DNA from: Candidatus Saganbacteria bacterium
GTDB taxonomy: Bacteria > Margulisbacteria > WOR-1 > XYC2-FULL-46-14 > XYC2-FULL-37-10
Direction: 5' to 3'
NCBI GenBank assembly: GCA_016223245.1
Contig: JACRPL010000016.1
Coordinates: 1,128 to 65,127 of the forward strand
DNA length: 64,000 nt
Shown here: positions 3,439 through 53,930 of the stretch, piece after piece
How positions within the stretch are numbered: position 1 is the stretch's first letter
Layout: each line of letters begins with the position of its first letter
Notes under the pieces: model-generated
The model's database searches: none
Seen by the model: only the letters and a program-made list of their open reading frames with translations
Told to the model about the DNA's origin: nothing
Made by a program: the position numbers and the translations under genes

Positions 3439-3509
3439 GAGACTAGTTAGGAACCTGCGAGTGAACCCTGCCTGCCGGCAGGCACGGTTCGCGGTTCCTA
3501 ACTAGTCTC
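3439..3509. repeat. About 70-bp near-perfect palindromic element (arms actagttaggaacc, core gcctgccggcaggc); second copy at 39238
   Basis: The sequence gagactagttaggaacctgcgagtgaaccctgcctgccggcaggcacggttcgcggttcctaactagtctc is present. Confidence 0.85.
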
Positions 3510-3620: not shown

Positions 3621-5306
3621 ATGAAAAATAAAATACTAGTTTATTCGCTGTTAGTTGTAAGCTGTATGTTCCTGCTGTCTGCTGTCTCATTAGCGGAAAT
3701 ACCGAGGACTATTAATGTCCAGGGGCGTGTTAGCGATAAAGGCATTCCAATTTCTGACGGGAAATATCAAATGTCTGTTGACTTTACGGACAAAGATGGG
3801 AACACGATCGCAGATGGCACGGAAAAAATATTTAATGATAAAGAAATAAAGAATGGCATGTTTAATTTGCAAATTAATTTGACTGGTGCCAATGATTGGC
3901 AATTAAAATTTGATAAGCCTTATTGGGTTCTTGTTGAACTTCCGAACTTAGGCTTGAAGTTTTTGCAACCCTTAACCTCCGTTCCATACGCCTTAAACGC
4001 GGATAGCCTTGGCGGCCTCCCTGCGACTTCGTATGCCACAAAAGATGCAAGTGGAAAGATCATTGGCGCATCGGGAGATTTTGTGAAAAAGAGCGGGGAT
4101 GATATGAGCGGGGTACTTGGGATTTCAGCTAAGGATGAAACAGCGGCTTTACGCGTTACGGACGACAGGACGACTATTACTCCTCCATGGTTTGGAATAC
4201 CTTTTGGTGCTATTGCCGCCAAGGGCGATGGAACGGTTGGCTTAAGCGCATATAGTAAAAACAATATGGGGATTTATGCTAAATCAGATTCAAAGGCAGG
4301 AATATTTGGAGTTGGGAAAGAAGCAGGCGTACATGGTGAAAAATCCAATGATGTCTTTGGCGAGCTTGGGACTGCTCGTTATTTCGCAGGCGTTTATCCG
4401 CCCATGGGCGTTTTTGGAACATCAACGGATATAGGTATTTATGGCTCAGTGGGGGAATCCTCCAAAGCGACGACATTGTCAGGCAAAAAGATCCCGTCAA
4501 TTGGTGTTGCAGGCTGGTCGCCTGATGGGAGAGGGGTTAGCGGTGGAAGCTCCACTGGGAGTGGCGTCTATGGAAGTAGCTGGTATGAATTTCCGGATAC
4601 TAGCTTATGGGTAAACAATAAGGATTACGCAGCAGGTGGATATTTTGAAGCACAAAAAGGATTTGGAGTAATTGGAACTTCTTTTTCGAATAATGGCGGA
4701 AATGGTGGCGGAGTTTTGGGAAGAAGTTTGGATACAAACGATGTTGTATCAGGCTTTTTTGCGAAAAATTTTGGTGTTGCAGGAATTAGCAATAAAGGAA
4801 ATGGTGTTTTTGGCGTTAGCAGTATGAACGATGGAATTTATGGGTACTCGCATGATAAAAACCATGCTGGGGTCTACGCGACGAATGCTGCCGCCACAGG
4901 AAACGCGATAAAAGCAGATGGAAAAGTTCAAATTGGATCGACAAAGGACCAATATTATGCTGATGTTGTTTTGGAAATTAATAAAGGGAAAATACAAATA
5001 GATAACGAAAGTAAAACAACTACTGTTGGGCCTGCAGCTTATTCAATTCATAATGTGGAGATAAATAAAATCGTCGGGAAAGTAACATTAAACGCTTCCA
5101 ATTCCAATTCTTACAATGGCGTAACTGTAACTAATGGTTACGTGAAAAAAGATTCTATAATATTATTAACTATTTTTGACTCAAGCTTTTCTCCCGCATC
5201 GGCGCACGACCAAGCTCTAGTTATCACTAAGCAATATGATGGGGGCTTTGAAGTTGTTTTCAGGTCAAAGCCAATAGGTGGATTTAATTTTCTAGTGATC
5301 AATTAG
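3621..5306 (+). CDS. Glycine-rich fibre-like surface protein with signal peptide and tail-fibre-like KSGDDMSGVL motif (paralog family, subfamily B)
   Basis: It has a signal peptide, a PRTINVQGR motif, PYALNADSLGGLPATSY...KKSGDDMSGVLGI, GVxGxS-type glycine repeats and the C-terminal GGFNFLVIN shared with the 19375 gene. Confidence 0.6.
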   Translation: MKNKILVYSLLVVSCMFLLSAVSLAEIPRTINVQGRVSDKGIPISDGKYQMSVDFTDKDGNTIADGTEKIFNDKEIKNGMFNLQINLTGANDWQLKFDKPYWVLVELPNLGLKFLQPLTSVPYALNADSLGGLPATSYATKDASGKIIGASGDFVKKSGDDMSGVLGISAKDETAALRVTDDRTTITPPWFGIPFGAIAAKGDGTVGLSAYSKNNMGIYAKSDSKAGIFGVGKEAGVHGEKSNDVFGELGTARYFAGVYPPMGVFGTSTDIGIYGSVGESSKATTLSGKKIPSIGVAGWSPDGRGVSGGSSTGSGVYGSSWYEFPDTSLWVNNKDYAAGGYFEAQKGFGVIGTSFSNNGGNGGGVLGRSLDTNDVVSGFFAKNFGVAGISNKGNGVFGVSSMNDGIYGYSHDKNHAGVYATNAAATGNAIKADGKVQIGSTKDQYYADVVLEINKGKIQIDNESKTTTVGPAAYSIHNVEINKIVGKVTLNASNSNSYNGVTVTNGYVKKDSIILLTIFDSSFSPASAHDQALVITKQYDGGFEVVFRSKPIGGFNFLVIN

Positions 5307-8062: not shown

Positions 8063-8142
8063 GACACCCCCACTAATTGTGCAAAAGGCCGCGCATAAAA
8101 AAACCGTGCGAGGCGTTTCAATTATTCCTGCTGCACAATGGC

Positions 8143-8171
8143 TTGCCCCCCCCCCAGAAATATGCTATTAT
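8143..8171 (+). promoter_or_regulatory. Sigma70-like promoter TTGCCC-N17-TATTAT whose spacer contains a C10 homopolymer (8146..8155)
   Basis: The sequence ttgccccccccccagaaatatgctattat sits about 12 bp upstream of ATG 8183. Confidence 0.45.
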
Positions 8172-8182
8172 TTGCCAATAAG

Positions 8183-9874
8183 ATGAAAAGAGTATTGTAT
8201 ATTTTATTGGTCATATTATTGGCAATTAGCTCAAGCGCTTTTGCAGCTACCCCGCATATTATAACTGTCCAAGGCAGATTGTTGCGATCTGGCGGCATCC
8301 CCGTCAACGGAATTAAAACCGCGACCTTTATGATAATCGAGGAGCCAAATTTGTTATTATGGTTGAGCGATCCAATGCAAGTAACCCTAATAGCGGGTGT
8401 TTTTTCAGTTGATCTCGACTTGGATAAGGTTGATGACGAAAGCTTGAGCTCCCCGAATCTATTAACTTTTGATAAGCCTTGTAAAATAATTACTAATATT
8501 GATGGAACGGTTTTTGAACAAAAGATCGCTGCGGTTCCTTACGCCTTAAACGCGGAGAAACTTAACGGTATGAATATCACGAAATTTGCAACACTGGATG
8601 CGAGCGGCAATATTATCGGCGCGAAGGCGGAAAAGTATGTAAAAAAGACTGGCGATGTAATGAGCGGCGGGCTTATTATATCAAGCGGCGGGGCAGATTT
8701 TGGGCTAGTGGCGAGCGGTGAAATCGGGGGTGTTAAAGGAACATATCTGGACAATAGCGATGCTATTGGGATGCTTGGTTACGGCAAAAAGCTGGGATTT
8801 GCAATTGTTGAGGGGAAAAAAATCAGCAAGGGAACCGAATTTTATGGCGCATACGGTAAATTCACCGATCTCGCGCAAGGAGGTCTTGGCGTCCAATTCC
8901 CCGGGAAAAAATCGTTCGGAGCCTGGGGTGTCGGCGGCGTTGCTGGGGGTTATTTTGAAAGCCAAAGCGGATATGGCTTGATTGCGATCGCAAGCAATGG
9001 GTCCGAAGGCGGGGCTTTGGGCGGCTATAATGTATTTGATACATCTGATACTAAGTTTGGAGTTGCAGGAATAAGCGATTCTGGCAATGGAGTTTATGGC
9101 GATGGCGACGCGGCCTATGGCGGGGAAATAAACGGGATATTTAAGAAAGCCGGTGTTTTTGGAAAAGGCGGGGCTAAGACGAGCGGTGTTCTGGGGTATT
9201 CTGAAGTCGACAACCCAAATCGCGCAGGAGTTGTCGGTATCAATCCTAACGGATACGCGGGGATATTCTCCGGCATTAAAGGCATGAATGTATCAGGGTC
9301 TCTTGAGGTAAAAGGTGATATCCGAGGAATTGATTGGATAAGCTTTGCACCATTTGATAAAAATTGGCCTGCACCTTTCCCGACCGACCTGGCCGACACC
9401 GTGATAGGTTATTCGAGCGGCGGCATGTTTGAAGAAGCTGTTCAGGTTGTTTCTCCAACAGAATCAATGGACCCGTATATTGTCTTTGCAAGCTCCTATC
9501 TTAACACTCCTAAGAGAGGAAAGATATTGATCAAGGCAACAGGGACTGTTCAGACTTCGGATGACGGCAACTCTCCATTTTGGGTTTCGGTCAAGCTTTT
9601 ACAGACAACTTACCAAGGAACGACGAAGAAAGAATTGCCAGGCGATCTTATTACAGTGGCAGGCACAAAAGCCAGCAAGATATTCAAGTATCCGTTCACT
9701 GTACAGGGGATGTTTGATGTTTCATCTGGTTTCCCAACCTTGTTTAACCCTAATAACTACGCCGCGCTTATTAGCAATCAATTTACTTTATCTTGCGCCA
9801 TGAAAACTTACGGCGGAAAGCCTTTAAATATTACGGGAAACATTCAGGCAATTTATATGCCGAATATTAATTAA
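8183..9874 (+). CDS. Glycine-rich fibre-like surface protein (paralog family); likely start MKRVLYILLVILLAISSSAFA
   Basis: It has a signal peptide, TPHIITVQGRL, PYALNAEKLNG...KKTGDVMSGGLII and glycine repeats. The track ORF start at 8138 crosses the poly-C tract and lacks a signal peptide. Confidence 0.55.
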   Translation: MKRVLYILLVILLAISSSAFAATPHIITVQGRLLRSGGIPVNGIKTATFMIIEEPNLLLWLSDPMQVTLIAGVFSVDLDLDKVDDESLSSPNLLTFDKPCKIITNIDGTVFEQKIAAVPYALNAEKLNGMNITKFATLDASGNIIGAKAEKYVKKTGDVMSGGLIISSGGADFGLVASGEIGGVKGTYLDNSDAIGMLGYGKKLGFAIVEGKKISKGTEFYGAYGKFTDLAQGGLGVQFPGKKSFGAWGVGGVAGGYFESQSGYGLIAIASNGSEGGALGGYNVFDTSDTKFGVAGISDSGNGVYGDGDAAYGGEINGIFKKAGVFGKGGAKTSGVLGYSEVDNPNRAGVVGINPNGYAGIFSGIKGMNVSGSLEVKGDIRGIDWISFAPFDKNWPAPFPTDLADTVIGYSSGGMFEEAVQVVSPTESMDPYIVFASSYLNTPKRGKILIKATGTVQTSDDGNSPFWVSVKLLQTTYQGTTKKELPGDLITVAGTKASKIFKYPFTVQGMFDVSSGFPTLFNPNNYAALISNQFTLSCAMKTYGGKPLNITGNIQAIYMPNIN

Positions 9875-9877
9875 ATC

Positions 9878-11452
9878 ATGAAAAAATTATATAAATTAAT
9901 AATTACATTGTTGGTCATTGGCCATTGGTCATTGGTCATTATCGCACCGGCGGCCGCTATTCCCAACAAAATAATTAACATCCAGGGAAAACTGACGGAC
10001 GATCACAATAAGATCGTCAAAAGTGTAAAACAGATCCGTGTCAGCATGGTTGATTCGAACAATCAAAGCATTTGGATTTCGCCTGTTATCACCATAACGG
10101 TAAATAATGCCGGAATATTCAATGCTGAATTTGACCTATCTTCCGCAACAGGCGTTGATTTTAATTCGCCTTACAGCCTTATTATTAATGTTATCGATGA
10201 TGCCGACAAAGTTACGACTCTCAATCCGCAGTCTTTGACCTCTGTTCCTTATGCTTTAAATAGTGACAAATTTAACGGCCTTTCATCTTCGAGTTTTGTC
10301 GTGCTCGATGATTTTGGGGAAATTGCTGGTGAACTTGCGGGCAATGTTAAAAAATCCGGGGATTCAATGTCCGGGAGCCTCAAGATAACAGGCGGTGAAA
10401 GCGATGATTATGGCGTCGAGGCAAGCGGGTAGTCGGGCGCAGTGAAAGGGACATGGATAGGGGATAATAATTTCTTCGGGGTATTAGGCGGCTATAGTTA
10501 CAAATATGGGGACGATGTGTCTTTGCCCGGGGTGTATGGGCAGCATTCAAGTTATACTGGCGCTGCCAGAGGAGGCCTTGGCGTTATAAGAAATATTCTA
10601 TGGTCTTTTGGTGTTTGGGGAAAAGGGCTGACCGCGGGCGGATATTTTTCTAGCGCGAACGGGACAGGTGTCCTTGGAAAATCTACGGGAACCGGCGGAA
10701 TATTTGGCGCTTATAATTCAAATTCGACAACTGACAAGTATTATGGAGTCGCAGGTGTTAGCGTTGCAGGCAACGGGGTGTATGGCGAGATAACTAGCGA
10801 TACGTTTAGCAGCGAGTGGAAAGCAGGGGTTTACGGCAAAGGAGGCGCAAAAACCTCTGGAGTTATGGGATACACAACAACAGATAAAGACAATGCGGCG
10901 GCAATTGTCGGGATCAATCCAAAAGGATACGGAGGGGATTTTACAGGAAAAAACGGCGTAAAAATAAATGGGCCGCTTGAAGTTTCGGGCGGGATACAAG
11001 GCAAGGGGCTTCACTGGGCGGAAAAAGGAATTACCGCATCTAATTTTTTTACCAAGACAAGCATTGGCGGTTATTATTACCATAAAATGATCAAGCATAT
11101 ATATGTGACATTCCCATATTCAGGCTATGCCCTTGTTCAAGCAAGCGGCATATTCTCAAACAATGACGAAAGTTTTTCCCAAATGTCCGCGCAAATAACC
11201 GACAACGAGTATTTGGATCCTGACGGAAAAAACTTTATTATTGATGGATCGGTCGCTGTTGTGGGATTAACAAATCCAACTGGGCAAGGATTCTATCCAT
11301 CGTTTCCATTTGCGTCATCAAGGGTTTTTGGAGTGGAAGGAGGCAAGTCGTATCATTTTCATTTGATCGGATTTCTAAAAACAACGAAAAGCGACGTTAA
11401 ATTTAATTTTGATGGCGCCCTTAATTGCATGTTCTTCTCGAGGAAATACTGA
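9878..11452 (+). pseudogene. Fibre-like surface protein paralog interrupted by an in-frame TAG at 10430..10432
   Basis: The ORFs 9878..10432 and 10442..11452 are in the same frame and the paralog alignment runs straight through the stop (GVEASG*SGAVKGTWIG versus GIESSGKTAGVKG). Confidence 0.5.
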
Positions 11453-11453
11453 T

Positions 11454-13007
11454 ATGAAAAGATTATCTATGAATATAATTATTACATTGTTGGTCATTTA
11501 TCATTGGTCATTTGTCATTTGTGCGCCTGCGCGCGCGGATGTCCCCAAAATAATGAATATCCAAGGCAAATTGACCGATCCGAATTCCAAGGCTGTTTCC
11601 GGGGCCAAAAAATTAAGATGTTCTCTGGTTGACAATAAAGGCGCGGCTGTTTTCAATTCTAAGGTTTATGATATCCCGCTAAATAGCGACGGAGTGTTCA
11701 ATGTGGATATTGACATATCTTCCACTCTCGCAGATTTTAATTCGCCATATACTTTGAATATTATTATTATCAATGAAGACGGGTCGACTTCTATTCTTGA
11801 GCCTAAGGCTCTAACTTCCGCACCATATGTATTAAATGCCGGAATGCTCGGAGGGCTTAAGCCCGCCTCTTTTGCGGCAAAAGATGCGGATGGCAAAATA
11901 GTCGGGTCGGTCGCCGGTTATGTCAAAAAAAGCGGGGATGAAATGAGCGGGGGCTTAAAAGTGAACGCCGGTAAATCTAATTTCGGGATCGAATCAAGCG
12001 GAAAAACGGCAGGGGTCAAAGGTTTATCGGCTTCAAGCGGCGATAGGTGGGGAGCGCTTGGCGGAGAGAATTATGGCGTTTACGGTCAGTCAACGGCTAA
12101 TGCGATAGGCATAATAGGCGTTTATGGCGTTTATGGCGTTTATGGCTCTGGAAAAACGTTTGGAGGGTATTTTCAAAGTTCAACAGGTATTGGCGCTATC
12201 GGGAAAACAACCGGCGCTAATGGCGGAGTGTTTGGCGGATACAACACCGCAGAGGCTAATGATAAATGGTTTGGGGTTGCAGGGGCAAGCGATTCGGGAA
12301 ACGGGATATATGGCGAAGTAGCCAGTAATACTTTGGACAGCGATTGGAAGGCCGGAGTTTACGGCAAGGGGAGCAATACGACGAGCGGAGTTTTTGGATA
12401 TACTGATTCAACGAGTGGCGCAGGCGTTAAGGGCGTAGATAATAGCGGATATGGGGCGATATTTTCGGGGGAAAAGGGCGTAAAAGTCGACGGACCTGTA
12501 AATATTTCAGGGACAATTACCGCAAACAATTTGCCGGGAATTGCTTACGATAACTATTTTAATTTTTCTAATACCAATCTAAAGTCGAGCACGGCAGTAA
12601 TCATTAAATCTGTTGAAATAGATGTGCCTGCTCCCGGGTATATATTGGTCCAATCAAGCGGAACCTTGTATTCATACGCCACTACCGATGTTTTAATTGG
12701 CTTAGGAATACTTAATATTGATAATTTCTCTTCTCAAGTCTTTTATGATGTATACTTTGGGACAAATCCATTGGTTTCGTATGTTTTTCTAGCGGATAAT
12801 TCGAAATTTAATTTTTCATGCCAGTTTGAAGCAAAAAAATCGATGGGCCCCAATATATATTTCCCATTTTCTACAAGCAATGTATTTGAAACGAAAACTG
12901 CCGGCAAACAAAAGTTTTATTTGACGGGATATCTTAAACATTCTGCTTCTTCCGGCCGATTAGATGTTTCAGGCTCGATACAAGCTATCTATTTCCCAAG
13001 CAAGTAG
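11454..13007 (+). CDS. Glycine-rich fibre-like surface protein (paralog family, subfamily A)
   Basis: It begins MKRLSMNIIITLLVIYHWSFVICAPARA, then PKIMNIQGKL, PYVLNAGMLGG...KKSGDEMSGGLKV and repeats such as GVYGVYGVYG. Confidence 0.6.
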   Translation: MKRLSMNIIITLLVIYHWSFVICAPARADVPKIMNIQGKLTDPNSKAVSGAKKLRCSLVDNKGAAVFNSKVYDIPLNSDGVFNVDIDISSTLADFNSPYTLNIIIINEDGSTSILEPKALTSAPYVLNAGMLGGLKPASFAAKDADGKIVGSVAGYVKKSGDEMSGGLKVNAGKSNFGIESSGKTAGVKGLSASSGDRWGALGGENYGVYGQSTANAIGIIGVYGVYGVYGSGKTFGGYFQSSTGIGAIGKTTGANGGVFGGYNTAEANDKWFGVAGASDSGNGIYGEVASNTLDSDWKAGVYGKGSNTTSGVFGYTDSTSGAGVKGVDNSGYGAIFSGEKGVKVDGPVNISGTITANNLPGIAYDNYFNFSNTNLKSSTAVIIKSVEIDVPAPGYILVQSSGTLYSYATTDVLIGLGILNIDNFSSQVFYDVYFGTNPLVSYVFLADNSKFNFSCQFEAKKSMGPNIYFPFSTSNVFETKTAGKQKFYLTGYLKHSASSGRLDVSGSIQAIYFPSK

Positions 13008-19374: not shown

Positions 19375-21225
19375 ATGAAAAAATTAATATTGTTCCTGGC
19401 CCTGTGCTCTGCTTTCTGCTTTCTGCTGTCTGCTGTCTTATTTGCCGATGTGCCGAGGACAATAAATATCCAGGGGCGATTGACGCAAAAAGATGGCGCG
19501 CCGATAAAAGACGGCCACTATGATTTCACGTTTTTCTTGGTAGATGAAAATAACAACTTCATGTCAACGATACTTAACGGTATAAACCCGATAGTAAATA
19601 ATACAAACAAGCAAACTCTTACTATAGATAAAAATGGGATATTCAATGCAATCCTTGAATTTGATCCAACATTTAGTTTTGATCCCGCTGTTTATCAGAT
19701 CAAAAAAATTGTTTTGGTTTCCAATGTCATAATTGACCCAGGTCAGCCCAAGGGGGTTGGCTTTGCGCAAGATATTACAGCTGTCCCTTATGCGATAAAT
19801 GCTGCAAATGCCGATAAGATCGGCGGAAAAACTTTTGATGAAGCGCTAAAAGCAAGTGGTGTTTCCGTAGGCGGTGGAGGCGTTGTTAACGAAAAATTTG
19901 ATCATTTGTATGTTGGCGATCAAAACAAAAATCATATAACTATGGTACCGCAAGGCAATAGTCTGGCTATATATGCTAAAGGAAATTATGTTGGCATTAA
20001 TGCTGTTGGTTATAGTTTTGGCGGAACATTTGAAGCTGATCCTGTTAAAGGAGTAGGGGTTTCTGGAGCTGGTGGAATTGGCGTGCAGGGCATTGGCGCA
20101 ACATATGCTGGTGGTATTTTTTATGGGCCAAATATAGGCGTTTTCGGTGCGTTATCTAGCGGACCACAAAATGGAAATAATTATGGCGTCTTAGGTGTAA
20201 CGTCTATTGCTGCTGGGAAGTATCTTCCTGGCACCATTAATTCTTATGGGGTTGCAGGAGTATCAGATACGGGAACTGGCGTTTTCGGAAAGAGCGATCA
20301 ATGGATAGCGATAGATGCAAAAACTAACTCGACAAAAGTTGAAGTGGCGGCTGTACATGGAGAAGCATCCAATTTTAAAGTGTTTGGCGAACTTGGGGTA
20401 TCCCGTTATTTCGCAGGCGTTAATCCGCCCATGGGCGTATTTGGAACATCAACGGATATTGGCGTTTATGGTTCCGTCGGAGATTCCACCAAAGTGACGA
20501 CATTGTCAACAAAAAACATCCCATCAATTGGTGTAGCTGGCTGGTCGCCAGATGGGAGAGGCGTGAGCGGGGGCAGCAGTAGCGGGACGGGGGTGTTTGG
20601 GGTCTCACAAGATGGTCTAGGCGGCAAATTTGAAAGCAAAAGCAGTGATGGTATTCATGCTTCGGGTATTTATGGAGTGTATGGCCTAAGTACTTCAAAA
20701 GATGGGATAGGAATATATGGCGCAAATGTTAATGGTATTGGAGTTAGAGGATGGAGCAGTACATCTATTGGAGGAAAATTTGAAAGTGTGAATGATGCAG
20801 GAATTTCAGGATATAGCATGAAAAGCAATGGCGTCCATGGGATTAGCGATCAATCATACGGTGTCTATGGAATTAGCAAAAGCGATTTAACCGCCGGAGT
20901 GCGCGCGCAAAACCAAAATGGCGGCCCCGCATTGTTTGTTGACGGCCCAATTCAAATGCCTGCAGGCAACGCCTCTGTAACTAGCGGCTCGCCCACAGCG
21001 ACAATAAATAAGGCTGTTGGCAGGGTAAATATTTCCGGGACATCCCAGTTTGATGTAACGGTAAATAATTCTTATGTGCATAAGGATTCTATTATATTAT
21101 TGACTATAATAAATTCTAATTCTAATTATGATCAGGCTGTGACGATCAAAAATCAAGTTAACGGGGCATTTACTGTCGGGTTCCGCTCAATAACTCAAGG
21201 GTTCAATTTTCTTGTTATAAATTAA
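19375..21225 (+). CDS. Glycine-rich fibre-like surface protein (subfamily B paralog of 3621)
   Basis: Its signal peptide is encoded by (CTGCTKT)n heptamers. It has VPRTINIQGRL and VPYAINAANADKIGG, and shares 'ELGxxRYFAGVxPPMGVFGTSTDIGxYGSVG' and the C-terminal FNFLVIN with the 3621 gene. Confidence 0.6.
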   Translation: MKKLILFLALCSAFCFLLSAVLFADVPRTINIQGRLTQKDGAPIKDGHYDFTFFLVDENNNFMSTILNGINPIVNNTNKQTLTIDKNGIFNAILEFDPTFSFDPAVYQIKKIVLVSNVIIDPGQPKGVGFAQDITAVPYAINAANADKIGGKTFDEALKASGVSVGGGGVVNEKFDHLYVGDQNKNHITMVPQGNSLAIYAKGNYVGINAVGYSFGGTFEADPVKGVGVSGAGGIGVQGIGATYAGGIFYGPNIGVFGALSSGPQNGNNYGVLGVTSIAAGKYLPGTINSYGVAGVSDTGTGVFGKSDQWIAIDAKTNSTKVEVAAVHGEASNFKVFGELGVSRYFAGVNPPMGVFGTSTDIGVYGSVGDSTKVTTLSTKNIPSIGVAGWSPDGRGVSGGSSSGTGVFGVSQDGLGGKFESKSSDGIHASGIYGVYGLSTSKDGIGIYGANVNGIGVRGWSSTSIGGKFESVNDAGISGYSMKSNGVHGISDQSYGVYGISKSDLTAGVRAQNQNGGPALFVDGPIQMPAGNASVTSGSPTATINKAVGRVNISGTSQFDVTVNNSYVHKDSIILLTIINSNSNYDQAVTIKNQVNGAFTVGFRSITQGFNFLVIN

Positions 21226-23732: not shown

Positions 23733-23796
23733 TGACAAATTACAAATGCCATGCCTACCGGCAGGCAGGTCAAATGACAAATGATGGAGTTGTTTT

Positions 23797-38887: not shown

Positions 38888-39148
38888 ATGCAAATGATTA
38901 TCGATTATATCGAAGCCGCATTAAAGAAAGCGCACTACGACATGATCCAGGATCAAGAGCCGTTTTATGCCGAGGTGCCTGGGCTTGACGGGGTCTATGC
39001 CAGCGGTAAAACATTGGAGGACTGCCGCAAAAATCTGGCAGAAGTAATTGATGATTGGATCGTTGTTCGGCTGAGAAGGGGATTGTCGATTCCGCCAATT
39101 GAAGGGCATAAGATCGAAGAATTGAAGGAATTGAAAATTAATGCCTAA
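38888..39148 (+). CDS. hicB: HicB-family antitoxin (UPF0150-like)
   Basis: It has YYAEVPGLDGVYASGKTLEDCRKNLAEVIDDWI. Confidence 0.55.
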   Translation: MQMIIDYIEAALKKAHYDMIQDQEPFYAEVPGLDGVYASGKTLEDCRKNLAEVIDDWIVVRLRRGLSIPPIEGHKIEELKELKINA

Positions 39149-39230
39149 ACTTGGCCCAATCTCCTGGAAAGAGCTCGTCCGTCGACTCCGAGAGTTCGGT
39201 ATCGCGGAGAGATTGGAGTTGATCTTTTAA
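39141..39230 (+). pseudogene. hicA: Truncated HicA-like toxin (29 codons, MPKLGPISWKELVRRLREFGI...)
   Basis: The N-terminus is HicA-like but the conserved GSH core is missing. The ORF ends just before the palindromic element at 39238. Confidence 0.4.
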
Positions 39231-39237
39231 ACAGGAT

Positions 39238-39300
39238 GAGACTAGTTAGGAACCTGCGAGTGAACCCTGCCTGCCGGCAGGCACGGCTCGCGGTTCCTAA
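39238..39300. repeat. Second copy of the about 70-bp palindromic element (right arm truncated)
   Basis: gagactagttaggaacctgcgagtgaaccctgcctgccggcaggcacggctcgcggttcctaa is nearly identical to 3439..3500. Confidence 0.85.
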
Positions 39301-39366
39301 AATCTACGAGGAAACCGCGACGCTTGTCCCGATTCCCACATCGGGATTTAGTCGCTGGTTTCCGAG

Positions 39367-39846
39367 TTGCTAACTGGTTTGATCGCGGCGTCTTTTAGTG
39401 TTGTTTTCATGGTAAATCACAAAGCAAGGACAACACAGGCCCCGTTGTTTGTTTATGATGAGATGGTAGCGACAAAGGCAAGCATCGCAAAACCTGCGGC
39501 TGAACGCCGCGGTTTAGAAGCGGCAGTGGGAACCGATACGTTTAGTGTCGGGGGTCCCGCCTCAGCTCCTTTGCCCATCATTCCTCCCCGTATTATTTCG
39601 CAGGTATTGCCAATATATCCCGAGTCTGCTATACAAAGCGGCGCAGCTGGCGTTGTAATTATCGAAGCGGCGATCCTCTCCACTGGAAATTTGGGACCCC
39701 TCAAAGTTAACACGACATCCGGCATCGCCGAATTGGATCAAGCAGTTGTAACGGCTGTTTCACAATGGAAATTTTCTGCGGCAACGCAGGGCGGAGCCGC
39801 TATCGCGTCGGTGTTTAAGATACCGATTAGGTTCGTATTGCGTTAA
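39367..39846 (+). CDS. TonB C-terminal-domain protein with an N-terminal TM anchor
   Basis: Its C-terminal part (...VLPIYPESAIQSGAAGVVIIEAAI...GIAELDQAVVTAVSQWKF...) resembles the TonB CTD fold. Confidence 0.5.
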   Translation: MLTGLIAASFSVVFMVNHKARTTQAPLFVYDEMVATKASIAKPAAERRGLEAAVGTDTFSVGGPASAPLPIIPPRIISQVLPIYPESAIQSGAAGVVIIEAAILSTGNLGPLKVNTTSGIAELDQAVVTAVSQWKFSAATQGGAAIASVFKIPIRFVLR

Positions 39847-39973: not shown

Positions 39974-40345
39974 ATGGCAAAAAATAAAATCATTAAAATC
40001 TTAATCGTTTCTCCGAAGCCGGACCAGATTTTTGAGCTTAATGCCTCTCCAGTAGAAACGGATCCCATCATTTTAAGCGCCAATATAATCCAGGATGGCA
40101 CAGATATTACTGGGAAAGTTAATATAAACTGGAAGTTAAGGTTAAGTTGGGCGACAGGATACAAAACTTATCAAACGCTATTTGAAATTTCTGGTAATCC
40201 CGCGGAAGTGAAGGTTGAAACCGGGGGAATATTGAGGGTTCGGGCGGCTGTTGTTATTGATGGAAAGGAATATTCGTCAAGAATCAAAGCCAATATTGTC
40301 GGAACTAATCCAACGCGAGACGAGACCAGATCAATAATATGCTAG
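39974..40345 (+). CDS. Hypothetical protein
   Basis: It is an ORF with no recognised motif. Confidence 0.3.
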   Translation: MAKNKIIKILIVSPKPDQIFELNASPVETDPIILSANIIQDGTDITGKVNINWKLRLSWATGYKTYQTLFEISGNPAEVKVETGGILRVRAAVVIDGKEYSSRIKANIVGTNPTRDETRSIIC

Positions 40346-40770
40346 AAAGCGATATTCTTAAGGCACTTGCCTGGCAAGAAAGCACTTGGTTGCAATTTAA
40401 AGATGATGGGCAGCCATTATTGCCTAAGATCAAAATAAAAAAAGGCCAAAAAATTCCTGCGATGAGAGGACTTTTTCAAATCAGCGAGTATTGGTGGGGG
40501 AGAGATAAAAGGATAGAGCATCAAGATCATAATCGGGTTGCCTGGCAATGGGATTATAATATCGCAACGGCTAAAGAAATTCTAAATCTGTTGCATGGTT
40601 TAGTTCTGGCCGCATATCCAGATGAAAGCGAGGAAAGAAAATGGAATAGAACTATTAAAGCTTTTCACGAAGGCGGAAGCAGCATTAATACAAAAAGAAT
40701 CCCCGATGATTTTTGGTATGTTTTAGAAGTCAGAGAAAAGCTGAAAGGGAAATTATGGGAAAAGCATTAG
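40339..40770 (+). CDS. Lytic-transglycosylase (SLT/lysozyme-like) domain protein
   Basis: It has ALAWQESTW ... MRGLFQIS, consistent with the SLT catalytic E-S and GLMQ motifs. Confidence 0.45.
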   Translation: MLESDILKALAWQESTWLQFKDDGQPLLPKIKIKKGQKIPAMRGLFQISEYWWGRDKRIEHQDHNRVAWQWDYNIATAKEILNLLHGLVLAAYPDESEERKWNRTIKAFHEGGSSINTKRIPDDFWYVLEVREKLKGKLWEKH

Positions 40771-41318
40771 GCTGTTTTCTTTTCCTAGCGTTGTTTTTTT
40801 GTTCAACTGGTATAGCCGGTGCGTCAAATAAGGCTATTAAGGAAAAATTAACAGCCCAATATTATACTGATATCAACGGAGACGGCAAAAGAGAATTACT
40901 GGTACATGATTTTTATGGCGGGACAGCCGGTTTTGGCGAACTAAGAATTTATAATTCAAAAGGCATTCTTATTTTTCGTAAAAAAGTTGAGGGCGATCCT
41001 TATCTCTGGCATCCAGTCAAACATGTTCAAGCCCTTAACCCTGATTTTTTTCCAGATTTAGATAAGGATGGCATAGTAGAAATTCTTGTTGGATATCGCG
41101 GTGAAGATGGCCATGTTTCCCATGTTGACGAACCCTGGTGGTTTGATATATATAAATGGAATGGGAAAGCTTATATTTTGGCGGATGATCAATTTCCTGG
41201 ATTTTATAAAGAAGAATTGTCCGGATATAAATCTTTTGCCAAAGAAAAAGGCGAATGTGAATTAATCAGGGAATATATTAGAAGGGCAGAAAGATTTGCA
41301 GGTCTGGAAGAGGATTAG
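40713..41318 (+). CDS. Hypothetical secreted protein with FG-GAP/VCBS-like Asp-rich repeats
   Basis: It has a signal peptide and the repeats DINGDGKRELLV and DLDKDGIVEILVGY. Confidence 0.4.
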   Translation: MVCFRSQRKAEREIMGKALGCFLFLALFFCSTGIAGASNKAIKEKLTAQYYTDINGDGKRELLVHDFYGGTAGFGELRIYNSKGILIFRKKVEGDPYLWHPVKHVQALNPDFFPDLDKDGIVEILVGYRGEDGHVSHVDEPWWFDIYKWNGKAYILADDQFPGFYKEELSGYKSFAKEKGECELIREYIRRAERFAGLEED

Positions 41319-41326: not shown

Positions 41327-41548
41327 ATGGCATTAGAAGGCTTAGGTAGATTACTTATCTATATAGGCGTCATAATCGTAATGATAGGCGCCTTCCTTCT
41401 TTTGGTCTCAAAGCTTCCGTGGTTTGGAAGGCTGCCAGGGGACATCGCGTGGCAAAAAGACGGCTGGACGATCTACGTGCCCTTGACGACTATGGTACTG
41501 GTTTCTATTGTAATAACAATAATCTTAAATTTTGTTTTTCGTAAATGA
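41327..41548 (+). CDS. DUF2905-family small membrane protein
   Basis: It has PWFGRLPGDI...GWTIYVPLTT and is 73 aa. Confidence 0.55.
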   Translation: MALEGLGRLLIYIGVIIVMIGAFLLLVSKLPWFGRLPGDIAWQKDGWTIYVPLTTMVLVSIVITIILNFVFRK

Positions 41549-42723
41549 TCCCAATCGACCTTAAAACATCCGACTTCGATTATGATCTTCCCCAAAGTTT
41601 GATCGCTCAAACACCGACCAATAAACGCGACGAATCGCGATTGATGGTCCTCAACCGAAAAGAAAAAACAATCGAACACAGGCTATTCAAAGATATTATT
41701 GACTATCTAATGCCCGAGGATCTTCTGGTATTAAACGACACAAAAGTAATGCCCGCGAATCTTATTGGGAAGAAGGCTGATGGGACGGCGAGGATTGAAG
41801 TTCTTCTTGTTCAGCGATGGAAACCTGCGACTAAATCCCGATGTGGGAATCGGGACAAGCGTCGCGGTTTCCAAAAATGGACATGTCTTGTGAAACCCGG
41901 CAAACGATTAAAAATAGGATCGAAAATAGTTTTCTCGGGAAAATTAACAGGTACGATCCGTGAGAAATTAGAATCCGGAGAACAAGTTATCGAGTTTATA
42001 GGCGAACTTCAGGGATTTATGCGTGAGCATGGGGAGATACCATTGCCGCCTTATATAAAAGTAGCTAACTCACCCCCTCAATCCCCCTCTCTTATTAAGA
42101 GAGGGGGAAGCCCGAAGGGCGGGGGTGAGTTGATCGCTAGATATCAGACAGTCTACGCCGAGAAAGAAGGCGCCTCGGCGGCGCCAACGGCGGGGCTTCA
42201 CTTTACCTCCGAACTTTTGGATCAAATAAAAGCAAAAGGCGTCAACATCGCGAAAATAACCCTTCACACTGGGCTTGGGACCTTTAAACCAGTTTATGCC
42301 GAATATATTAAAGACCATAAGATGTTCGAGGAAGAATACGAGGTGTCTGCGGAAACAATACGCGCGATATCCCGATGTAACATCGGGATGAAACGCGTGA
42401 TCGCGGTCGGAACAACGAGTGTTAGGACATTGGAAACCATTTACCCACACTTACATCTCCCTCTTATCAAGGGGGAGAACGAGAGGGGGTCAACCGACAT
42501 CTTTATCTATCCAGGATTTAAATTTCAAATAGTTGATGCCATGATTACGAATTTTCACATTCCAAGATCAACTTTGCTGATGCTTGTTTCCGCCTTCGCA
42601 CAGAATGCTTCGGCGGACAAGTCCGCCTTCGCAGGGAGAGATTTTATTTTTCGTGCTTATAAAGAAGCGATAGATAAGGAATATAGATTTTTCAGCTTTG
42701 GCGATGCGATGCTTATTATTTAA
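41545..42723 (+). CDS. queA: S-adenosylmethionine:tRNA ribosyltransferase-isomerase, with two in-frame palindromic-element insertions
   Basis: It begins DFDYDLPQSLIAQTP and has the QueA core. It is longer than usual because of the inserts SPPQSPSLIKRGGSPKGGGE and HLPLIKGENERGSTD. Confidence 0.8.
   Translation: MIPIDLKTSDFDYDLPQSLIAQTPTNKRDESRLMVLNRKEKTIEHRLFKDIIDYLMPEDLLVLNDTKVMPANLIGKKADGTARIEVLLVQRWKPATKSRCGNRDKRRGFQKWTCLVKPGKRLKIGSKIVFSGKLTGTIREKLESGEQVIEFIGELQGFMREHGEIPLPPYIKVANSPPQSPSLIKRGGSPKGGGELIARYQTVYAEKEGASAAPTAGLHFTSELLDQIKAKGVNIAKITLHTGLGTFKPVYAEYIKDHKMFEEEYEVSAETIRAISRCNIGMKRVIAVGTTSVRTLETIYPHLHLPLIKGENERGSTDIFIYPGFKFQIVDAMITNFHIPRSTLLMLVSAFAQNASADKSAFAGRDFIFRAYKEAIDKEYRFFSFGDAMLII
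42068..42130. repeat. GC-rich nested palindromic element inserted in-frame in queA
   Basis: actcaccccc-tcaat-ccccctctcttattaagagaggggg-aagcccgaagggc-gggggtgagt is present. Confidence 0.75.
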
Positions 42724-42732: not shown

Positions 42733-44769
42733 TTAAAAGAAAATAATCCTTTTTACCTCGTTTAACAAATCGCAAAATTTTTCGTAGGATGCCTCAAATT
42801 CTTCAGAGTTTTGAATAGAGTCTTCCAATGCTTTCAATTGGCCCAATATCTTCTCTTTTAATTCGGGTCGCAGTTTTCCAATGCTTGCGGCAAATAGGTT
42901 TCGCGTCTCCGATATTTTCTTTTTAAGCCTTAAAACTCTTGATCCAGCCATCTCAAGGTCGGAAATAAAAGAATAAATATATACTTGCGCCTCTGTCAAG
43001 AGCGCTTCATATTCTTTCCTTTCCGCGGGAATGATTGAAAATCTTTCAATCCTCCCGATAAGGGCCGCTAAATCGCCATTTGGCCTTTTATTTATTTTTT
43101 CAAACTCCTCTTTGATCTTTAGCAATTCTTTTATTATTTGGGGCCTTTGGCGCCTGTAATTTTCTATTAGCGCAGAAGCCTCGAGGCTGTAGTCCGATTT
43201 TATTTCAGCGTCAATTTCCGCCTTAAGGCGCGATATCCTTGCCTTAACTTGCGGCATTAAATTCGCTTCGTCGCGCTTCACCGGGTATGCCCATCTTCCA
43301 TAAGCGGCAAGTTTCTCGTGCGCCAAAAAAGGAGAGGCTTCGCCTTCGGCTTTTTTTGCGAGTTGAGCCTGCTCTAAATAAAGCTTTAATCTTATGAATT
43401 GCAAGTCGCTAAAATCTCCCGGGATCAAAGATGCCCCCTTAAGGGCCATGATTGCCTCCGCAATAAGCTCTGCCGCAACAGATTTAAGAACGCTGTTATT
43501 TTCTTTCTTATAATCCTTGCTGAAAACCAAGGCGGTTTTTACGGAGCTCAAGATGGAATATAAGCACCTGTAGCCAACTAATACGTCATCGGGTATCTTA
43601 TTAAAAATTTCACGGATAATTTTATCCAGGTCTTCGTGGGATTTAGCGTCTTCAAGCAGGGCATTGGACAAAGCAAACCCTAAAACGGCAAAATCGCGGA
43701 TAAAGCTTTTTTTGCTTTTGGCTGATGTTTCAAGGATTTTCAAAGCCGTCGCAAGATAAGTTGCGTCTCTTTTCCCTTTTCTCGAATTGATAAGCTCTTT
43801 TGTCAGGGCAACAAAATCTTTGAGACTAGTCCAAGCATGGGCTTTTGTTTCATCCGGCATAATATCAGATGTTGGCAGGGATGGTTTTCGTGTTGTTCTT
43901 AAGGATTCGGGGATATTAGGATTTGGCACTGCTTCAGAATCGACAGCTTGGGCCCAAGCCTTCAAGCTTTCAAAATCCATCTGCCCGCGATATTTTTGTT
44001 TAATTGGGTAAGATAGGTTAAAGATTGTTCTTTGGAAGGATTCGCTCCATTGGGAGGCAATTGCAATCTTAATTAAAAAGCCTGCAACTTTTTTTCTCAT
44101 TCCATCACTCATCTGCCAATCTTCAATATAACCAAAAAAGCCCAATAATATTGGGTTGCCGTTGTTTTTGATATTTAGCTCATTTTTTACCACAAGAAGA
44201 AATGCGATGGCATCCGTAATGCCTTTTGTCTTATCGGCGAGAAAAGCTTCAACAAATTCGATATTCTTGTCCCAATTCCCCATTTCTTCGGTGCGGAGCT
44301 CTAATTTTTGGCTTCCCAAAGTAAAGGCATTTAGAGCCTCATCATAAGCCATCCGCCTTGATCTTGCATATTCCTTTACAGCATTGTCAAATTTCAAAAG
44401 ATCGACGTCGTCAATGTTTGACGCTTCTGGTTCTTTTTGCGCTGTCTTATCCCCATCAAGATGCCATCCCCTGGCAATTGTCCTAACAAGAACAAACTGT
44501 TTCGGGTCTATTCCTAATGCCATAAGCTCTTCAAAGCTTAAGCCGTCGCTTAGATCGATTTTTGTAAATGTTTGGTCGGCAGATTTGTCATTTTTATCTT
44601 TTATGACAACAACATTTCCTGAAAACTTTGCGTAAACAAAGGTATCGGCGCTTCCATCGCCTTTATCGTTAGTGTCGCCGATCTTCTTCAGTTCATCTTT
44701 TTTAAGGAACAGATTCCAAGAAGAAATAAGGCGCACATAAAGATTTGTATTTGTTTTTAATTCCGCCAT
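42733..44769 (-). CDS. Large hypothetical protein (678 aa)
   Basis: It is a long ORF with no recognised motif and is predicted mostly helical. Confidence 0.4.
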   Translation of the reverse strand: MAELKTNTNLYVRLISSWNLFLKKDELKKIGDTNDKGDGSADTFVYAKFSGNVVVIKDKNDKSADQTFTKIDLSDGLSFEELMALGIDPKQFVLVRTIARGWHLDGDKTAQKEPEASNIDDVDLLKFDNAVKEYARSRRMAYDEALNAFTLGSQKLELRTEEMGNWDKNIEFVEAFLADKTKGITDAIAFLLVVKNELNIKNNGNPILLGFFGYIEDWQMSDGMRKKVAGFLIKIAIASQWSESFQRTIFNLSYPIKQKYRGQMDFESLKAWAQAVDSEAVPNPNIPESLRTTRKPSLPTSDIMPDETKAHAWTSLKDFVALTKELINSRKGKRDATYLATALKILETSAKSKKSFIRDFAVLGFALSNALLEDAKSHEDLDKIIREIFNKIPDDVLVGYRCLYSILSSVKTALVFSKDYKKENNSVLKSVAAELIAEAIMALKGASLIPGDFSDLQFIRLKLYLEQAQLAKKAEGEASPFLAHEKLAAYGRWAYPVKRDEANLMPQVKARISRLKAEIDAEIKSDYSLEASALIENYRRQRPQIIKELLKIKEEFEKINKRPNGDLAALIGRIERFSIIPAERKEYEALLTEAQVYIYSFISDLEMAGSRVLRLKKKISETRNLFAASIGKLRPELKEKILGQLKALEDSIQNSEEFEASYEKFCDLLNEVKRIIFF

Positions 44770-46504: not shown

Positions 46505-46570
46505 TTGAAGACATTATACATCAAGACATGGAAACCTGCGACAATATCGTCGCGGTTTCCAATATGGTAG

Positions 46571-48450
<1,880 letters not shown>

Positions 48451-51770: not shown

Positions 51771-53930
51771 GTGGCCCGCAAAAAAAACAATGAACCATCT
51801 CCGTTCGCGCAAGACCTTACAGGGATACTGCTTGTCGCCTTGGCTGTTTTTATCCTGGTCTCGAATTTTTCGTCCGGGACCGGGCTTGTAGGGTTGTATG
51901 TGATAAAGCTGGCCTTCAGGTCGATCCTAGGGATAGGCATTTACTTGCTTCCTTTTATCCTTGCCGCATACGGAGTGATCCTTCTCTTCAGGCATGAAGT
52001 AAAAGAGCTTGCGACAAGGCTGACCGGGCTTTTGATCTTGTTTTTCACTTTTATCACTGCAGTCCAATTTTATGCTCCAAATTATTTTGAGACGAATGCC
52101 CAATATAATATTGTCCAAGGAGCCGGCGGATTTTTGGGGTATATTTTCAAATTCGCCCTGGAGCGGAGCATTGGCGCCATGGGCGCATATATTGTAATTT
52201 CCGCATTTGCGCTGATCTCGCTCCTATTGGTATTCAACATAACTTTTTTAGATATTTTCTCAAGATTAAAACTTTGGCTTTCGCTCGCGCCCAATAAAAA
52301 GGCGCAAATAAGCAAAAAACCAGCAATTCCTGTAAAAACAATGGACGAAAGGTCTATTCCGGCGCAAATACCTCTTATAATAGAATCTTTTCCTATGAAC
52401 GAGCCTGAGCCGCCAAAGGACGAAACAGAAATTGTGATCGAAGAAAAAAAACCTGGCCTGCCGGCAGGCAGGGAAAAACAGTCCTACAATAAATACAAAC
52501 TTCCGCCATTGAGCCTTCTCGACGACCCGACAGCCAAAGAAAAGCAAAAACAGGACAAGCTTAAGGAAACCACAGAATACAGGAGAAAATTGCTTGAAGA
52601 TACTTTGAAGAATTTCGGCGTCGGCGCCCGGGTTGTTTCGACAAACCAGGGGCCGGCGGTGACAAGATACGAGCTCCAGCCCGATCCCGGCGTCAAGATA
52701 AGCAGGATCGCATCTCTTTCGGATGATATTGCATTGAACCTAGCGGCACAGGGCGTTCGAATAGAGGCTCCGGTGCCTGGAAAATCGGTTATCGGTATCG
52801 AGGTCCCCAATGTTTCTGTAACTCCTGTAAGGCTAAAAGAGATCGTAAAAACAAATGAATTCATTAACAACCAGTCAAAATTATTCATCGCTTTGGGAAA
52901 AGACCTGTCGGGGACCCCGATTTACGGCGATCTTGCGAAAATGCCCCATTTGCTTATAGCGGGTACGACAGGGTCAGGTAAATCCGTATGCATAAATTCA
53001 TTGATCATTAGCCTTCTTTTGCGGGCGCGCCCCGATGAGCTGAAATTCATCATGATCGATCCCAAAATGGTCGAGCTTTCCGTTTATGATGATATTCCGC
53101 ACTTATTGGCGCCTGTTGTTACTGATGCCATGCGCGCGGCTCTTACCTTGAAAGAATGGGTAATGAAAGAAATGGAGCGCAGGTACAAACTTTTTTATGA
53201 TGTCGCCGCCAGGAATATTTTTGCCTATAACAGCAAGAAGCCTGATGAAAAGATCCCGCATATTGTAGTAGTAATAGACGAATTGGCTGACCTCATGATG
53301 CTTGCGGCATCGGAGGTTGAAACGACGATATGCAGGCTTGCCCAAATGGCGCGCGCTACAGGAATCCATCTGGTGATAGCCACGCAGAGGCCGTCGGTTG
53401 ACGTCATTACGGGCCTTATCAAAGCGAATATCCCGTCCCGCATAGCTTTTGCTGTTGCAACACAGATCGATTCGCGCGTCATTCTCGACGCGTCAGGGGC
53501 CGAAAAACTGCTTGGCCGCGGCGATATGCTTTATAATCCTGTAGGAGCCATGAAGCCGATCCGCCTGCAGGGATCATATGTTACGGACAAAGAAACTGAA
53601 AAAATAATTGATTTCATAAAAGAGCAGGCCGCACCCGAATATTTGGAAGAGCTTGTGTCATTAAAAGTTGCTGAAGGCGATACTGTATTCAAGGACAAGG
53701 AAGAGAACGGCCGCGATGCGCTGTTCATTGAAGCGGTGAAGCTTATTATTGAAGCCCAAGTAGCGTCGACATCATACTTGCAGCGCAAGATGAGGATAGG
53801 ATACAATCGCGCGGCAAGGCTTATGGACGATATCGAAGCCGCAGGAGTAGTTTCAAAACCCGAAGGCGAGCAAAAGACTAGGCGCATCGTTGCTACTATG
53901 GACACACTTGTTTCTTTAGGCGTTAAGTGA
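51771..53930 (+). CDS. ftsK: DNA translocase FtsK
   Basis: It has N-terminal TM segments, a linker, the motor domain with Walker A AGTTGSGKS and a C-terminal gamma domain. Confidence 0.85.
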   Translation: MARKKNNEPSPFAQDLTGILLVALAVFILVSNFSSGTGLVGLYVIKLAFRSILGIGIYLLPFILAAYGVILLFRHEVKELATRLTGLLILFFTFITAVQFYAPNYFETNAQYNIVQGAGGFLGYIFKFALERSIGAMGAYIVISAFALISLLLVFNITFLDIFSRLKLWLSLAPNKKAQISKKPAIPVKTMDERSIPAQIPLIIESFPMNEPEPPKDETEIVIEEKKPGLPAGREKQSYNKYKLPPLSLLDDPTAKEKQKQDKLKETTEYRRKLLEDTLKNFGVGARVVSTNQGPAVTRYELQPDPGVKISRIASLSDDIALNLAAQGVRIEAPVPGKSVIGIEVPNVSVTPVRLKEIVKTNEFINNQSKLFIALGKDLSGTPIYGDLAKMPHLLIAGTTGSGKSVCINSLIISLLLRARPDELKFIMIDPKMVELSVYDDIPHLLAPVVTDAMRAALTLKEWVMKEMERRYKLFYDVAARNIFAYNSKKPDEKIPHIVVVIDELADLMMLAASEVETTICRLAQMARATGIHLVIATQRPSVDVITGLIKANIPSRIAFAVATQIDSRVILDASGAEKLLGRGDMLYNPVGAMKPIRLQGSYVTDKETEKIIDFIKEQAAPEYLEELVSLKVAEGDTVFKDKEENGRDALFIEAVKLIIEAQVASTSYLQRKMRIGYNRAARLMDDIEAAGVVSKPEGEQKTRRIVATMDTLVSLGVK

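Follow-up and report, generated by a model that had tools for sequence, protein, structure and literature searches.

What is the near-perfect palindrome of 71 nt, here called E1, that lies at positions 3439–3509 of a 64,000-nt stretch of the Candidatus Saganbacteria contig JACRPL010000016.1 (the whole stretch is referred to as the window), and what is its relation to a broken hicA toxin gene at which a distant second copy is found? E1 is a member of a large family of DNA hairpins in Margulisbacteria genomes, and we think it probable, at about 0.7, that it is a non-autonomous mobile DNA element of the repetitive extragenic palindromic (REP) type or of the type of the REP doublets forming hairpins (REPINs). 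The Margulisbacteria are an uncultivated sister lineage of the Cyanobacteria, and the QueA and HicB proteins encoded in the window match NCBI Candidatus Saganbacteria proteins with 100% identity. A literature search gave no paper in which such repeats are connected with Saganbacteria or Margulisbacteria.

The original prediction, made from the letters of the window, was of a palindrome with a second copy far away, and this is borne out: copy 2, at 39238–39300, is 63 nt long and matches copy 1 at 62 of 63 positions, the sole difference (T3488 versus C39287) being the replacement of a G-T pair by a G-C pair. Folding, which had been proposed as a check, gives a near-perfect hairpin with either strand, at -49 to -51 kcal/mol and a z score of about -10 versus shuffles. 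Within the window, and by comparison with shuffled sequence, the 17-nt E1 arm occurs three times against 0.07 expected, and the 14-nt core GCCTGCCGGCAGGC, with at most one mismatch, four times against 0.03 expected. An in-frame copy of the core inside ftsK is indeed present and exact (52456–52469), in the linker separating the 4TM and alpha domains, as is a variant hairpin between ilvB and ilvN (23753–23766). The count of two intergenic sites, however, was too low, as the window contains seven units of the family, about one per 9 kb, and three of these are within genes (Table 1). Copy 1 itself occupies a 288-nt gap upstream of the gene at 3621–5306.

E1 is built of three layers: a 28-nt hairpin unit, a 20-nt GC palindrome (CCTGCCTGCCGGCAGGCA(C/G)G) inserted in the loop of the unit, and an outer inverted repeat of 11–12 bp (GAGACTAGTTAG). 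In copy 1 these correspond to 3450–3498, 3467–3486 and 3439–3450/3498–3509, respectively. The unit consensus reads GGAA(A)CC, a bulged T, GCGAN, the loop TRAA(M), N'TCGC and GGTT(T)CC. The minimal form is 27–28 nt long, with an 11-bp stem, one extrahelical T and the TRAA(M) loop (e.g. GGAACC-T-GCGAC-TAAAC-GTCGC-GGTTCC), and it occurs in the same loci as long forms, which have an additional GC-rich hairpin within the loop. A second long form in the window, E2, has a frame in common with E1, namely GGAA(A)CC, T, GCGAN, either TGAAC or TAAAT with a variable GC hairpin, N'TCGC and GGTT(T)CC. Because a single site in QueA carries a short unit in locus L038 and a long unit with an added GC-rich loop segment in L098, the loop insert is best regarded as a separate nested module; the 20-nt GC palindrome is also found free-standing in many loci, and in the loops of other hairpin families. 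The two copies of E1, and the two of E2 with 53 of 54 positions identical, lie at unrelated sites in the window, and their near identity is a sign of recent copying.

Units also occur in doublets. Among 119 units in 0.6 Mb of low-GC loci, adjacent pairs separated by no more than 60 nt are in the (+)(-) arrangement in 17 cases and (-)(+) in one, and none are direct repeats. Copy 2 of E1 had been described as having a shortened right arm, but what follows it is a second hairpin 12 nt on and then a degenerate right terminal repeat, such that the order is GAGACTAGTTAG, unit E1(+) at 39249–39297, the spacer TAAAATCTACGA, unit E2(-) at 39310–39363, GAGTT, and GCTAACTGGTTT, the last being the degenerate terminal repeat. 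Locus L140 has the same whole layout (left end, unit(+), TAAAAT(A/C)T(G/A)CGA, unit(-)), and thus copy 2 is the left part of a doublet composite.

The family is abundant, and not restricted to two sites as the prediction had allowed it might be. A scan of one genome per species with the pattern GGAACCTGCGA-N(15-45)-TCGCGGTTCC gave 35 matches, of which 19 loci are from metagenome-assembled genomes (MAGs) of Margulisiibacteriota/Saganbacteria or from unclassified MAGs with the same hairpin; the other 16, mostly in high-GC taxa, are apparently due to chance. A metagenome scan gave at least 120 contigs with a unit, mainly in the short form, and scans of viral contigs returned three chance matches on high-GC contigs without hairpins, so that there is no phage link.

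The outer repeat raises the possibility that E1 is a classical miniature inverted-repeat transposable element (MITE), moved by a DDE transposase, for which the terminal inverted repeats GAGACTAGTTAG/CTAACTAGTCTC are the recognition sites and the inner hairpins are cargo. The terminal motif does recur beside units in the window and in four further independent contigs (L052, L053, L065 and L140), and in L065 two such ends bracket a (+)(-) doublet with ATGTT on either side, a possible 5-bp target duplication. Nonetheless, we consider this reading improbable: only a small minority of units have the motif, and often on one side only; copy 1 has perfect ends but no duplication; the terminal motif is absent from the metagenome scan; there is no DDE transposase among the recurrent neighbours; and the part of the element that is conserved, and that covaries as described below, is the inner hairpin and not the ends.

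The enzyme with which the family is associated is of a different kind. A local phmmer search with IS200 and IS608 TnpA query sequences identified small Y1 open reading frames (ORFs) in L044, L060 and L061, and a fourth, in L081, was detected with tblastn; an E. coli query for a REP-associated tyrosine transposase (RAYT) gave no match. The three phmmer matches contain the Pfam Y1_Tnp domain (PF01797, E about 1e-23 to 1e-24), and a database search found 34 Y1 relatives, several of them named Saganbacteria or Margulisbacteria proteins. Three further Y1 genes were taken, by protein alone, from NCBI Saganbacteria/Margulisbacteria MAGs (L165–L168). Canonical family units are located within about 110 nt of all seven distinct Y1 genes, four of which come from loci chosen because they contain a unit. 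Six of the seven have units on both sides, (+) upstream and (-) downstream relative to the gene, and for the remaining one, in L165, the only canonical unit lies downstream, while core-stem mini-hairpins directly adjoin the ORF. No tnpB accompanies any of the seven, and the neighbours that could be called are housekeeping genes. The Y1 gene context is identical in two assemblies, which is only suggestive of single-copy vertical inheritance. The Y1 proteins pass the NCBIfam transpos_IS200 model (65–81 bits, cutoff 55), and their best PDB matches are the IS200-group transposases 2f4f, 2xm3 and 2ec2. When ORFs near units were clustered in search of a recurrent non-Y1 enzyme, only housekeeping families and xerC/D-like genes emerged. 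The suggestion of a MITE/REP-like mobile palindrome is thus supported in its REP-like sense, with units that flank Y1 (IS200-like) genes and that form inverted doublets.

We note two further features of the Y1 loci. Mini-hairpins made of the inner stem and loop (e.g. GAGAA-TAAA-TTCTC) directly abut Y1 ORFs, inside the canonical flanking units, at about 2650–2670 in L044, about 5942–5962 in L060, and directly before 2001 and after 2435 in L165. In L166 (about 1830–1930/2520–2600) and at the equivalent positions of L167, a segment of about 95 nt is directly duplicated, with one copy on each side of the Y1 gene. The segment consists of half a unit and the first 20 or so codons of the downstream SpoU-like methylase gene, and its duplication may be the footprint of the arrival of a Y1 cassette.

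The stems provide information on the level at which the units are constrained. The search on which the stem test is based anchored the outer arms only and left the inner stem free, so that the outer arms are uninformative on pairing. All five base pairs of the inner stem are formed in 166 of 175 units, with the variants GCGAC/GTCGC, GCGAA/TTCGC, GCGAG/CTCGC, GAGAA/TTCTC, GAGAG/CTCTC, GAGAC/GTCTC, GAGGC/GCCTC and GCGGC/GCCGC. Among 23 distinct sequences, pairing is maintained in 99.2% of cells and three stem positions change on both sides, with a covariation score of 0.267 compared to 0.077 in shuffles (0/500); the signal is lost on sliding the 3' partners by one to three columns. G-U pairs are seen in only 1 of 253 cells, and the units inside genes include 14 in sense and 22 in antisense orientation. 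The near absence of G-U pairs and the presence of both orientations inside genes together indicate constraint at the DNA level, and they disfavour an RNA signal, which could not work in both orientations. Searches against Rfam, with gathering thresholds across the whole window and with lax E-values at the two E1 sites, returned only tRNAs and chance matches to miRNAs and CRISPR repeats, and the structured RNA put forward in the original prediction is thus unlikely. A CRISPR repeat was also considered and dropped, and a DNA uptake sequence was rejected, since the covariation of the stem shows that a structure is conserved and not a linear motif.

A strong hairpin could also belong to an intrinsic terminator or another transcript-level signal, to a double-stranded DNA operator, or to a recombinase site resembling dif or attC. 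In its layout the 28-bp unit is similar to a pair of 11-bp arms flanking a 5–6-bp centre, and in L114 a xerC/D-like gene is flanked by units. These explanations are largely refuted by the anatomy of the family, and we regard them as very remote. There is no T-run and no terminator-like site was called on any unit, and units are also present in a divergent promoter gap and inside ORFs, so that the terminator that had been suggested earlier is not supported. Loop insertions of 20–40 nt would wreck the spacing of a double-stranded site, and a density of about one unit per 9 kb implies many genomic copies, incompatible with active recombination sites; moreover, no cassette arrays of units and no integron-type integrase were seen. 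Two specific candidates were rejected: a dif/Xer site, as incompatible with the loop insertions and the high unit density, and an integron attC site, for which an AAC...GTT motif is present but with no arrays, no IntI, and the wrong order of outer motifs. The L114 gene (1456–2476), which encodes a xerC/D-like tyrosine recombinase and lies between a doublet and a single unit, is probably flanked by coincidence, given the density of units.

How might such units move? In the mechanism that we propose, the 28-nt hairpin would be the functional core. A small Y1 HUH transposase (IS200-like, and acting in the manner of a RAYT) would recognise it in its folded, single-stranded DNA form, and the gene for this enzyme would be present as a single copy at another site in the genome, flanked by a pair of such hairpins that are inverted with respect to each other. 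The (+)(-) doublets would mimic the two flanks of the Y1 gene and so constitute the mobilisable unit, from which solo hairpins such as copy 1 would derive. The unit loop tolerates nested insertions, here the 20-nt GC palindrome, and a subset of units, including both E1 copies, bears the outer repeat as an extra terminal inverted repeat. Insertions would persist where they are tolerated, either in intergenic DNA or, when in frame, in surface loops of proteins, where they would be translated like the Rickettsia palindromic elements (RPEs).

The doublet composite at hicA illustrates what such an insertion may do. In relatives with an 85–87% identical HicB, the gene order is TonB-dependent receptor, diphthamide-synthase-like gene (seen in L163), hicB, hicA, tonB-like, DUF2905, queA and tgt. 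The 29-aa HicA fragment encoded in the window is uninformative when used alone in Pfam and PDB searches, and its identity is resolved by synteny; judged from these comparisons of sequence and gene order, the 29-codon ORF is a decayed orthologue of a 71-aa PF07927 hicA, the orthologues not being equally short. Aligned with L163, the window gene matches from codon 1 to about codon 21, followed by a 76-nt internal deletion and a frameshift, with a stop at codon 30 (39228–39230); the deletion lies about 37 nt upstream of the element. Codons 48–57 or thereabouts (GEIGVDLLNR) persist out of frame up to the element boundary, and homology to L163 ends exactly between 39237 and 39238, the latter being the first base of the element, at codon 57/58. 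The alignment to full-length homologues that had been called for thus places the homology break at the element boundary, and since the two coincide exactly we conclude that the element removed the 3' end of hicA. The claim that it truncated hicA is therefore correct for the 3' end but not for the premature stop after 29 codons, which results from the separate internal deletion. In all, the composite replaces the last 14 codons of hicA, the spacer, and the first 10–22 or so codons of the tonB-like gene. In the explanation proposed here, a doublet, together with a deletion of about 80–115 bp, replaced the 3' end of hicA, which was either already decaying or decayed subsequently, and the 5' end of the tonB-like gene.

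The tonB-like gene also contains an in-frame (+)(-) doublet, made of a short unit that is absent from the tonB-like orthologues and of a degenerate partner (Table 1). Comparison of the window with L160 across the tonB-like, DUF2905, queA and tgt genes shows two extra three-gene blocks in the window, within 39974–41318 and 42733–46504. A further short unit lies at the junction before tgt, in a 75-nt gap between the divergent genes 45782–46504(-) and tgt (46580–47680, +), and with the doublet composite located at the hicA/tonB deletion, two of the window's units coincide with a synteny breakpoint and a deletion.

Table 1. Units of the hairpin family, free-standing GC palindromes and affected genes in the window. 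R1 is a covariance model built from short units.
Feature	Position	Strand	Remarks
E1 copy 1, solo composite with perfect ends	3439..3509	+	71 nt, GAGACTAGTTAGGAACCTGCGAGTGAACCCTGCCTGCCGGCAGGCACGGTTCGCGGTTCCTAACTAGTCTC
Free-standing GC palindrome variant CATGCCTACCGGCAGGCAGG	23750..23769	.	ilvB-ilvN spacer
hicA remnant	39141..39237	+	alignment to L163; 71-aa PF07927 HicA in L160-L164
Doublet composite	39238..39384	+	right end uncertain by ~5 nt; left end fixed by L163 alignment
tonB-like gene (TonB_C)	39367..39846	+	starts at TTG inside the element's right end
Short unit AAACC-T-GCGGC-TGAAC-GCCGC-GGTTT, encodes KPAAERRG	39490..39515	+	covariance model R1, 32.8 bits, E = 4e-6
Degenerate partner unit GGAACC-GATAC-GTTTA-GTGTC-G-GGGGTCC	39529..39557	-	11.3 bits, weak match
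Unit E2(+), 54 nt, encodes KPATKSRCGNRDKRRGF	41819..41872	+	in frame in queA; 53/54 complementary to 39310-39363
Short unit GGAAACC-T-GCGAC-AATATC-GTCGC-GGTTTCC	46530..46560	+	27.5 bits
Free-standing 20-nt GC palindrome CCTGGCCTGCCGGCAGGCAGG	52450..52473	.	FtsK linker, in frame

Insertion within genes is common throughout the family. About 30% of the units (36 of the 119) are within long open frames and about 70% are outside, an intragenic share that is depleted relative to typical bacterial coding density and yet is far above that of classical REPs. Hosts confirmed by Pfam include MutS (two loci, at orthologous sites), a UvrD-like helicase-nuclease, the leucyl-tRNA synthetase LeuRS, a heavy-metal P-type ATPase (copA-like), RsmE-like, MiaB-like and DAO proteins, a MiaA-like isopentenyl-pyrophosphate (IPP) transferase, and the QueA of the window. 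The last of these has an 18-residue segment, KPATKSRCGNRDKRRGFQ, in a loop that is empty in P0010, P0016, P0017, P0042 and P0097, that contains a short unit (EPATKRRGS) in P0007, and that contains a unit in the minus orientation (AATFRS...) in P0018, P0057 and P0104. The encoded peptides vary with frame and orientation (e.g. EPATKRRGS, NLRLNVAV, GTATFSRRF and EPRRLVAGS), and because the unit has four open frames out of six, several of them in use, it is not the peptide that is conserved.

The queA gene of the window (41545–42723) has at least four more in-frame palindromic or repeat inserts besides the unit. These are TCCCCCTCTCTTA-T-TAAGAGAGGGGGA, encoding SPSLIKRGG; the palindrome CCCGATGT-A-ACATCGGG, encoding SRCNIGMK; TCTCCCTCTT-AAT-AAGGGGGAGA, encoding LPLIKGEN; and an 11-aa insert near the 3' end, AFAQNASADKS; the coordinates of the first three are 42082–42108, 42360–42398 and 42456–42478. 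Since SPSL.KRGG is also found in other Margulisbacteria QueAs, at two different sites, other hairpin families evidently colonise genes as well. In L005, a complete (+)(-) doublet is in frame in a gene for a FAD-dependent oxidoreductase (DAO) at 4776–4861, and its long unit is almost identical to the E1 core.

The units in mutS bear on a further alternative, that the hairpin is a functional one selected by the host, as DNA or RNA bound by a protein and with a role in the nucleoid, replication, repair or mRNA stability, and that its association with Y1 genes is historical. The MutS proteins of L020 and L060 have 69% identity and only 40% at third codon positions, which are saturated, yet their two short units at an orthologous site agree at 30 of 30 positions; at a second orthologous site the long unit is identical at 37 of 51, and its stem is kept by paired changes (GCGAC/GTCGC to GCGAA/TTCGC), although one of the units compared was ascertained through an exact-match scan. 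Such conservation fits selection in place, or gene conversion, better than the passive decay of a selfish insert. A host function would also be in keeping with the conserved TRAA loop and bulged T, with units in genes for DNA maintenance (mutS and the UvrD-like helicase), and with the nested GC palindrome in ftsK. The same conservation could instead reflect conversion by other family copies carrying exactly these variants, and conversion would yield paired changes too. Furthermore, the positions of units are heterogeneous (a divergent promoter gap, 3' ends, protein loops), a role as RNA conflicts with the two orientations inside genes and the scarcity of G-U pairs, and the syntenic relatives L159–L164 (26 kb) have no units at all, so that any function must be dispensable. 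We consider a host-selected hairpin to be unlikely as the primary explanation.

The mutS sites are nonetheless a point against a mobile element of the REP/REPIN type, and there are several others. The flanks of the units have no conserved tag (GTAG or CGTC), target motif or duplication (TA included), with no position within 12 nt on either side exceeding 0.3 bits and with GTAG or CGTC in at most 4 of 119 flanks. The E1 outer arm ACTAGTTAGGAACCTGCGA has no exact match in the metagenome scan, and no filled-versus-empty polymorphism was found for E1. No Y1 gene is present within the 64-kb window, the association being seen in other contigs, and the manner in which four of the seven Y1 loci were chosen has been mentioned above. 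Finally, the Y1 proteins fall below the cutoff of the NCBIfam REP_Tyr_transpos model (44–54 bits, cutoff 80).

REP elements with RAYT transposases (TnpA-REP) were reportedly described by Nunvar in 2010. In the REP/REPIN-RAYT architecture, hairpins flank a Y1 gene in inverted orientation (Bertels & Rainey 2011, PMC3116915; Ton-Hoang 2012, PMC3333891), and the family described here is similar in several respects: short imperfect palindromes in high copy number, inverted doublets with a short spacer, the same hairpins flanking a Y1 HUH gene in inverted orientation without tnpB, stem sub-families with complementary changes, and persistence across related genomes. It departs from these systems in lacking the GTAG tag, in its longer stem (11 bp) with a fixed extrahelical T and a conserved TRAA loop, in Y1 proteins that score as IS200-type and not as the NCBIfam RAYT equivalog, in having about 30% of its units inside genes where REPs are predominantly extragenic, and in its host, the candidate phylum Margulisiibacteriota. 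With Pseudomonas REP and stem-loop composites that flank RAYT genes (PMC3733652) it shares the joining of a unit to an unrelated outer inverted repeat, as in E1; however, GAGACTAGTTAG is short, is on a minority of units, and is not seen flanking the Y1 genes examined.

The IS200/IS605 elements, with the miniature elements derived from them, have a transposase of the same family (PF01797), imperfect subterminal hairpins with an extrahelical base, which act there in recognition, and no target duplication, as here, but in this family the flanking hairpins are inverted and not direct and vastly outnumber the gene, and the neighbours of the gene that could be called are housekeeping genes. The in-frame units are reminiscent of RPEs, which form in-frame, translated extra segments (Ogata 2000, as reviewed in PMC10969869), and of intragenic REPs; repeats in replication and repair genes have been reported by Di Nocera 2013 (PMC3733652). 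Like these, the units are in-frame palindromes in unrelated housekeeping genes, including those of replication and repair, are translated, and sometimes occur twice or as dimers in a gene. RPE-1 is about 100–150 bp and has a conserved peptide, whereas the units here measure 27–60 nt and are translated in four or more different frames and orientations; RPE-type repeats have a CGTC tag and no dedicated transposase (PMC3733652), whereas here there is no tag and an association with Y1 genes. The family thus resembles RPEs in being inserted in frame where orthologues have no insertion, but it has neither a conserved peptide nor homology to RPEs.

The window contains other repeats as well. The heptamer TTGGTCA, or its complement, is tandemly repeated at 1482–1518, 9904–9941, 11483–11519, 46437–46487 and 60700–60737, and some of these arrays lie at the 5' ends of paralogous genes of one family, in the part that encodes the signal peptide. 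The arrays appear to resemble the short tandemly repeated repetitive (STRR) heptamers of cyanobacteria. Genes at 3621–5306, 8138–9874 and 19375–21225, and their neighbours, code for paralogous secreted proteins with G-V-x-G-[IV]-S repeats and have shared upstream regions; the one paralogue scanned with Pfam (3621–5306) had no match. Two 28-nt CCCCTCTCCCAGTGGGAG(A/G)GGGG palindromes, at 47113–47140 and 47730–47757, are 93% complementary and separated by 589 nt; they make up a further family of hairpin repeats.

REPIN-RAYT systems, which are best characterised in Proteobacteria, attract study as rare cases in which mobile DNA is maintained by vertical descent over very long periods. The same architecture, with an IS200-like enzyme, is now seen in a sister lineage of the Cyanobacteria, with unusual traits in its modular build of nested palindromes and in its heavy in-frame colonisation of housekeeping proteins. 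There is a slim chance that this REPIN-like population and its Y1 enzyme have become long-term vertical partners of the host, with units kept by selection in essential genes as DNA-level signals; if so, the selected units (in mutS, the helicase, queA and tRNA synthetases) would be functional intragenic structured DNA, for example for replication, repair or nucleoid proteins. For the annotation of MAGs, the family means that proteins bear peptide inserts derived from repeats and that repeat ends can supply gene starts, and in this window two units coincide with the decay of hicA and with a synteny breakpoint. It also offers a tractable system in which to ask how Y1 enzymes are recruited from insertion sequences, and whether intragenic hairpins are neutral or selected.

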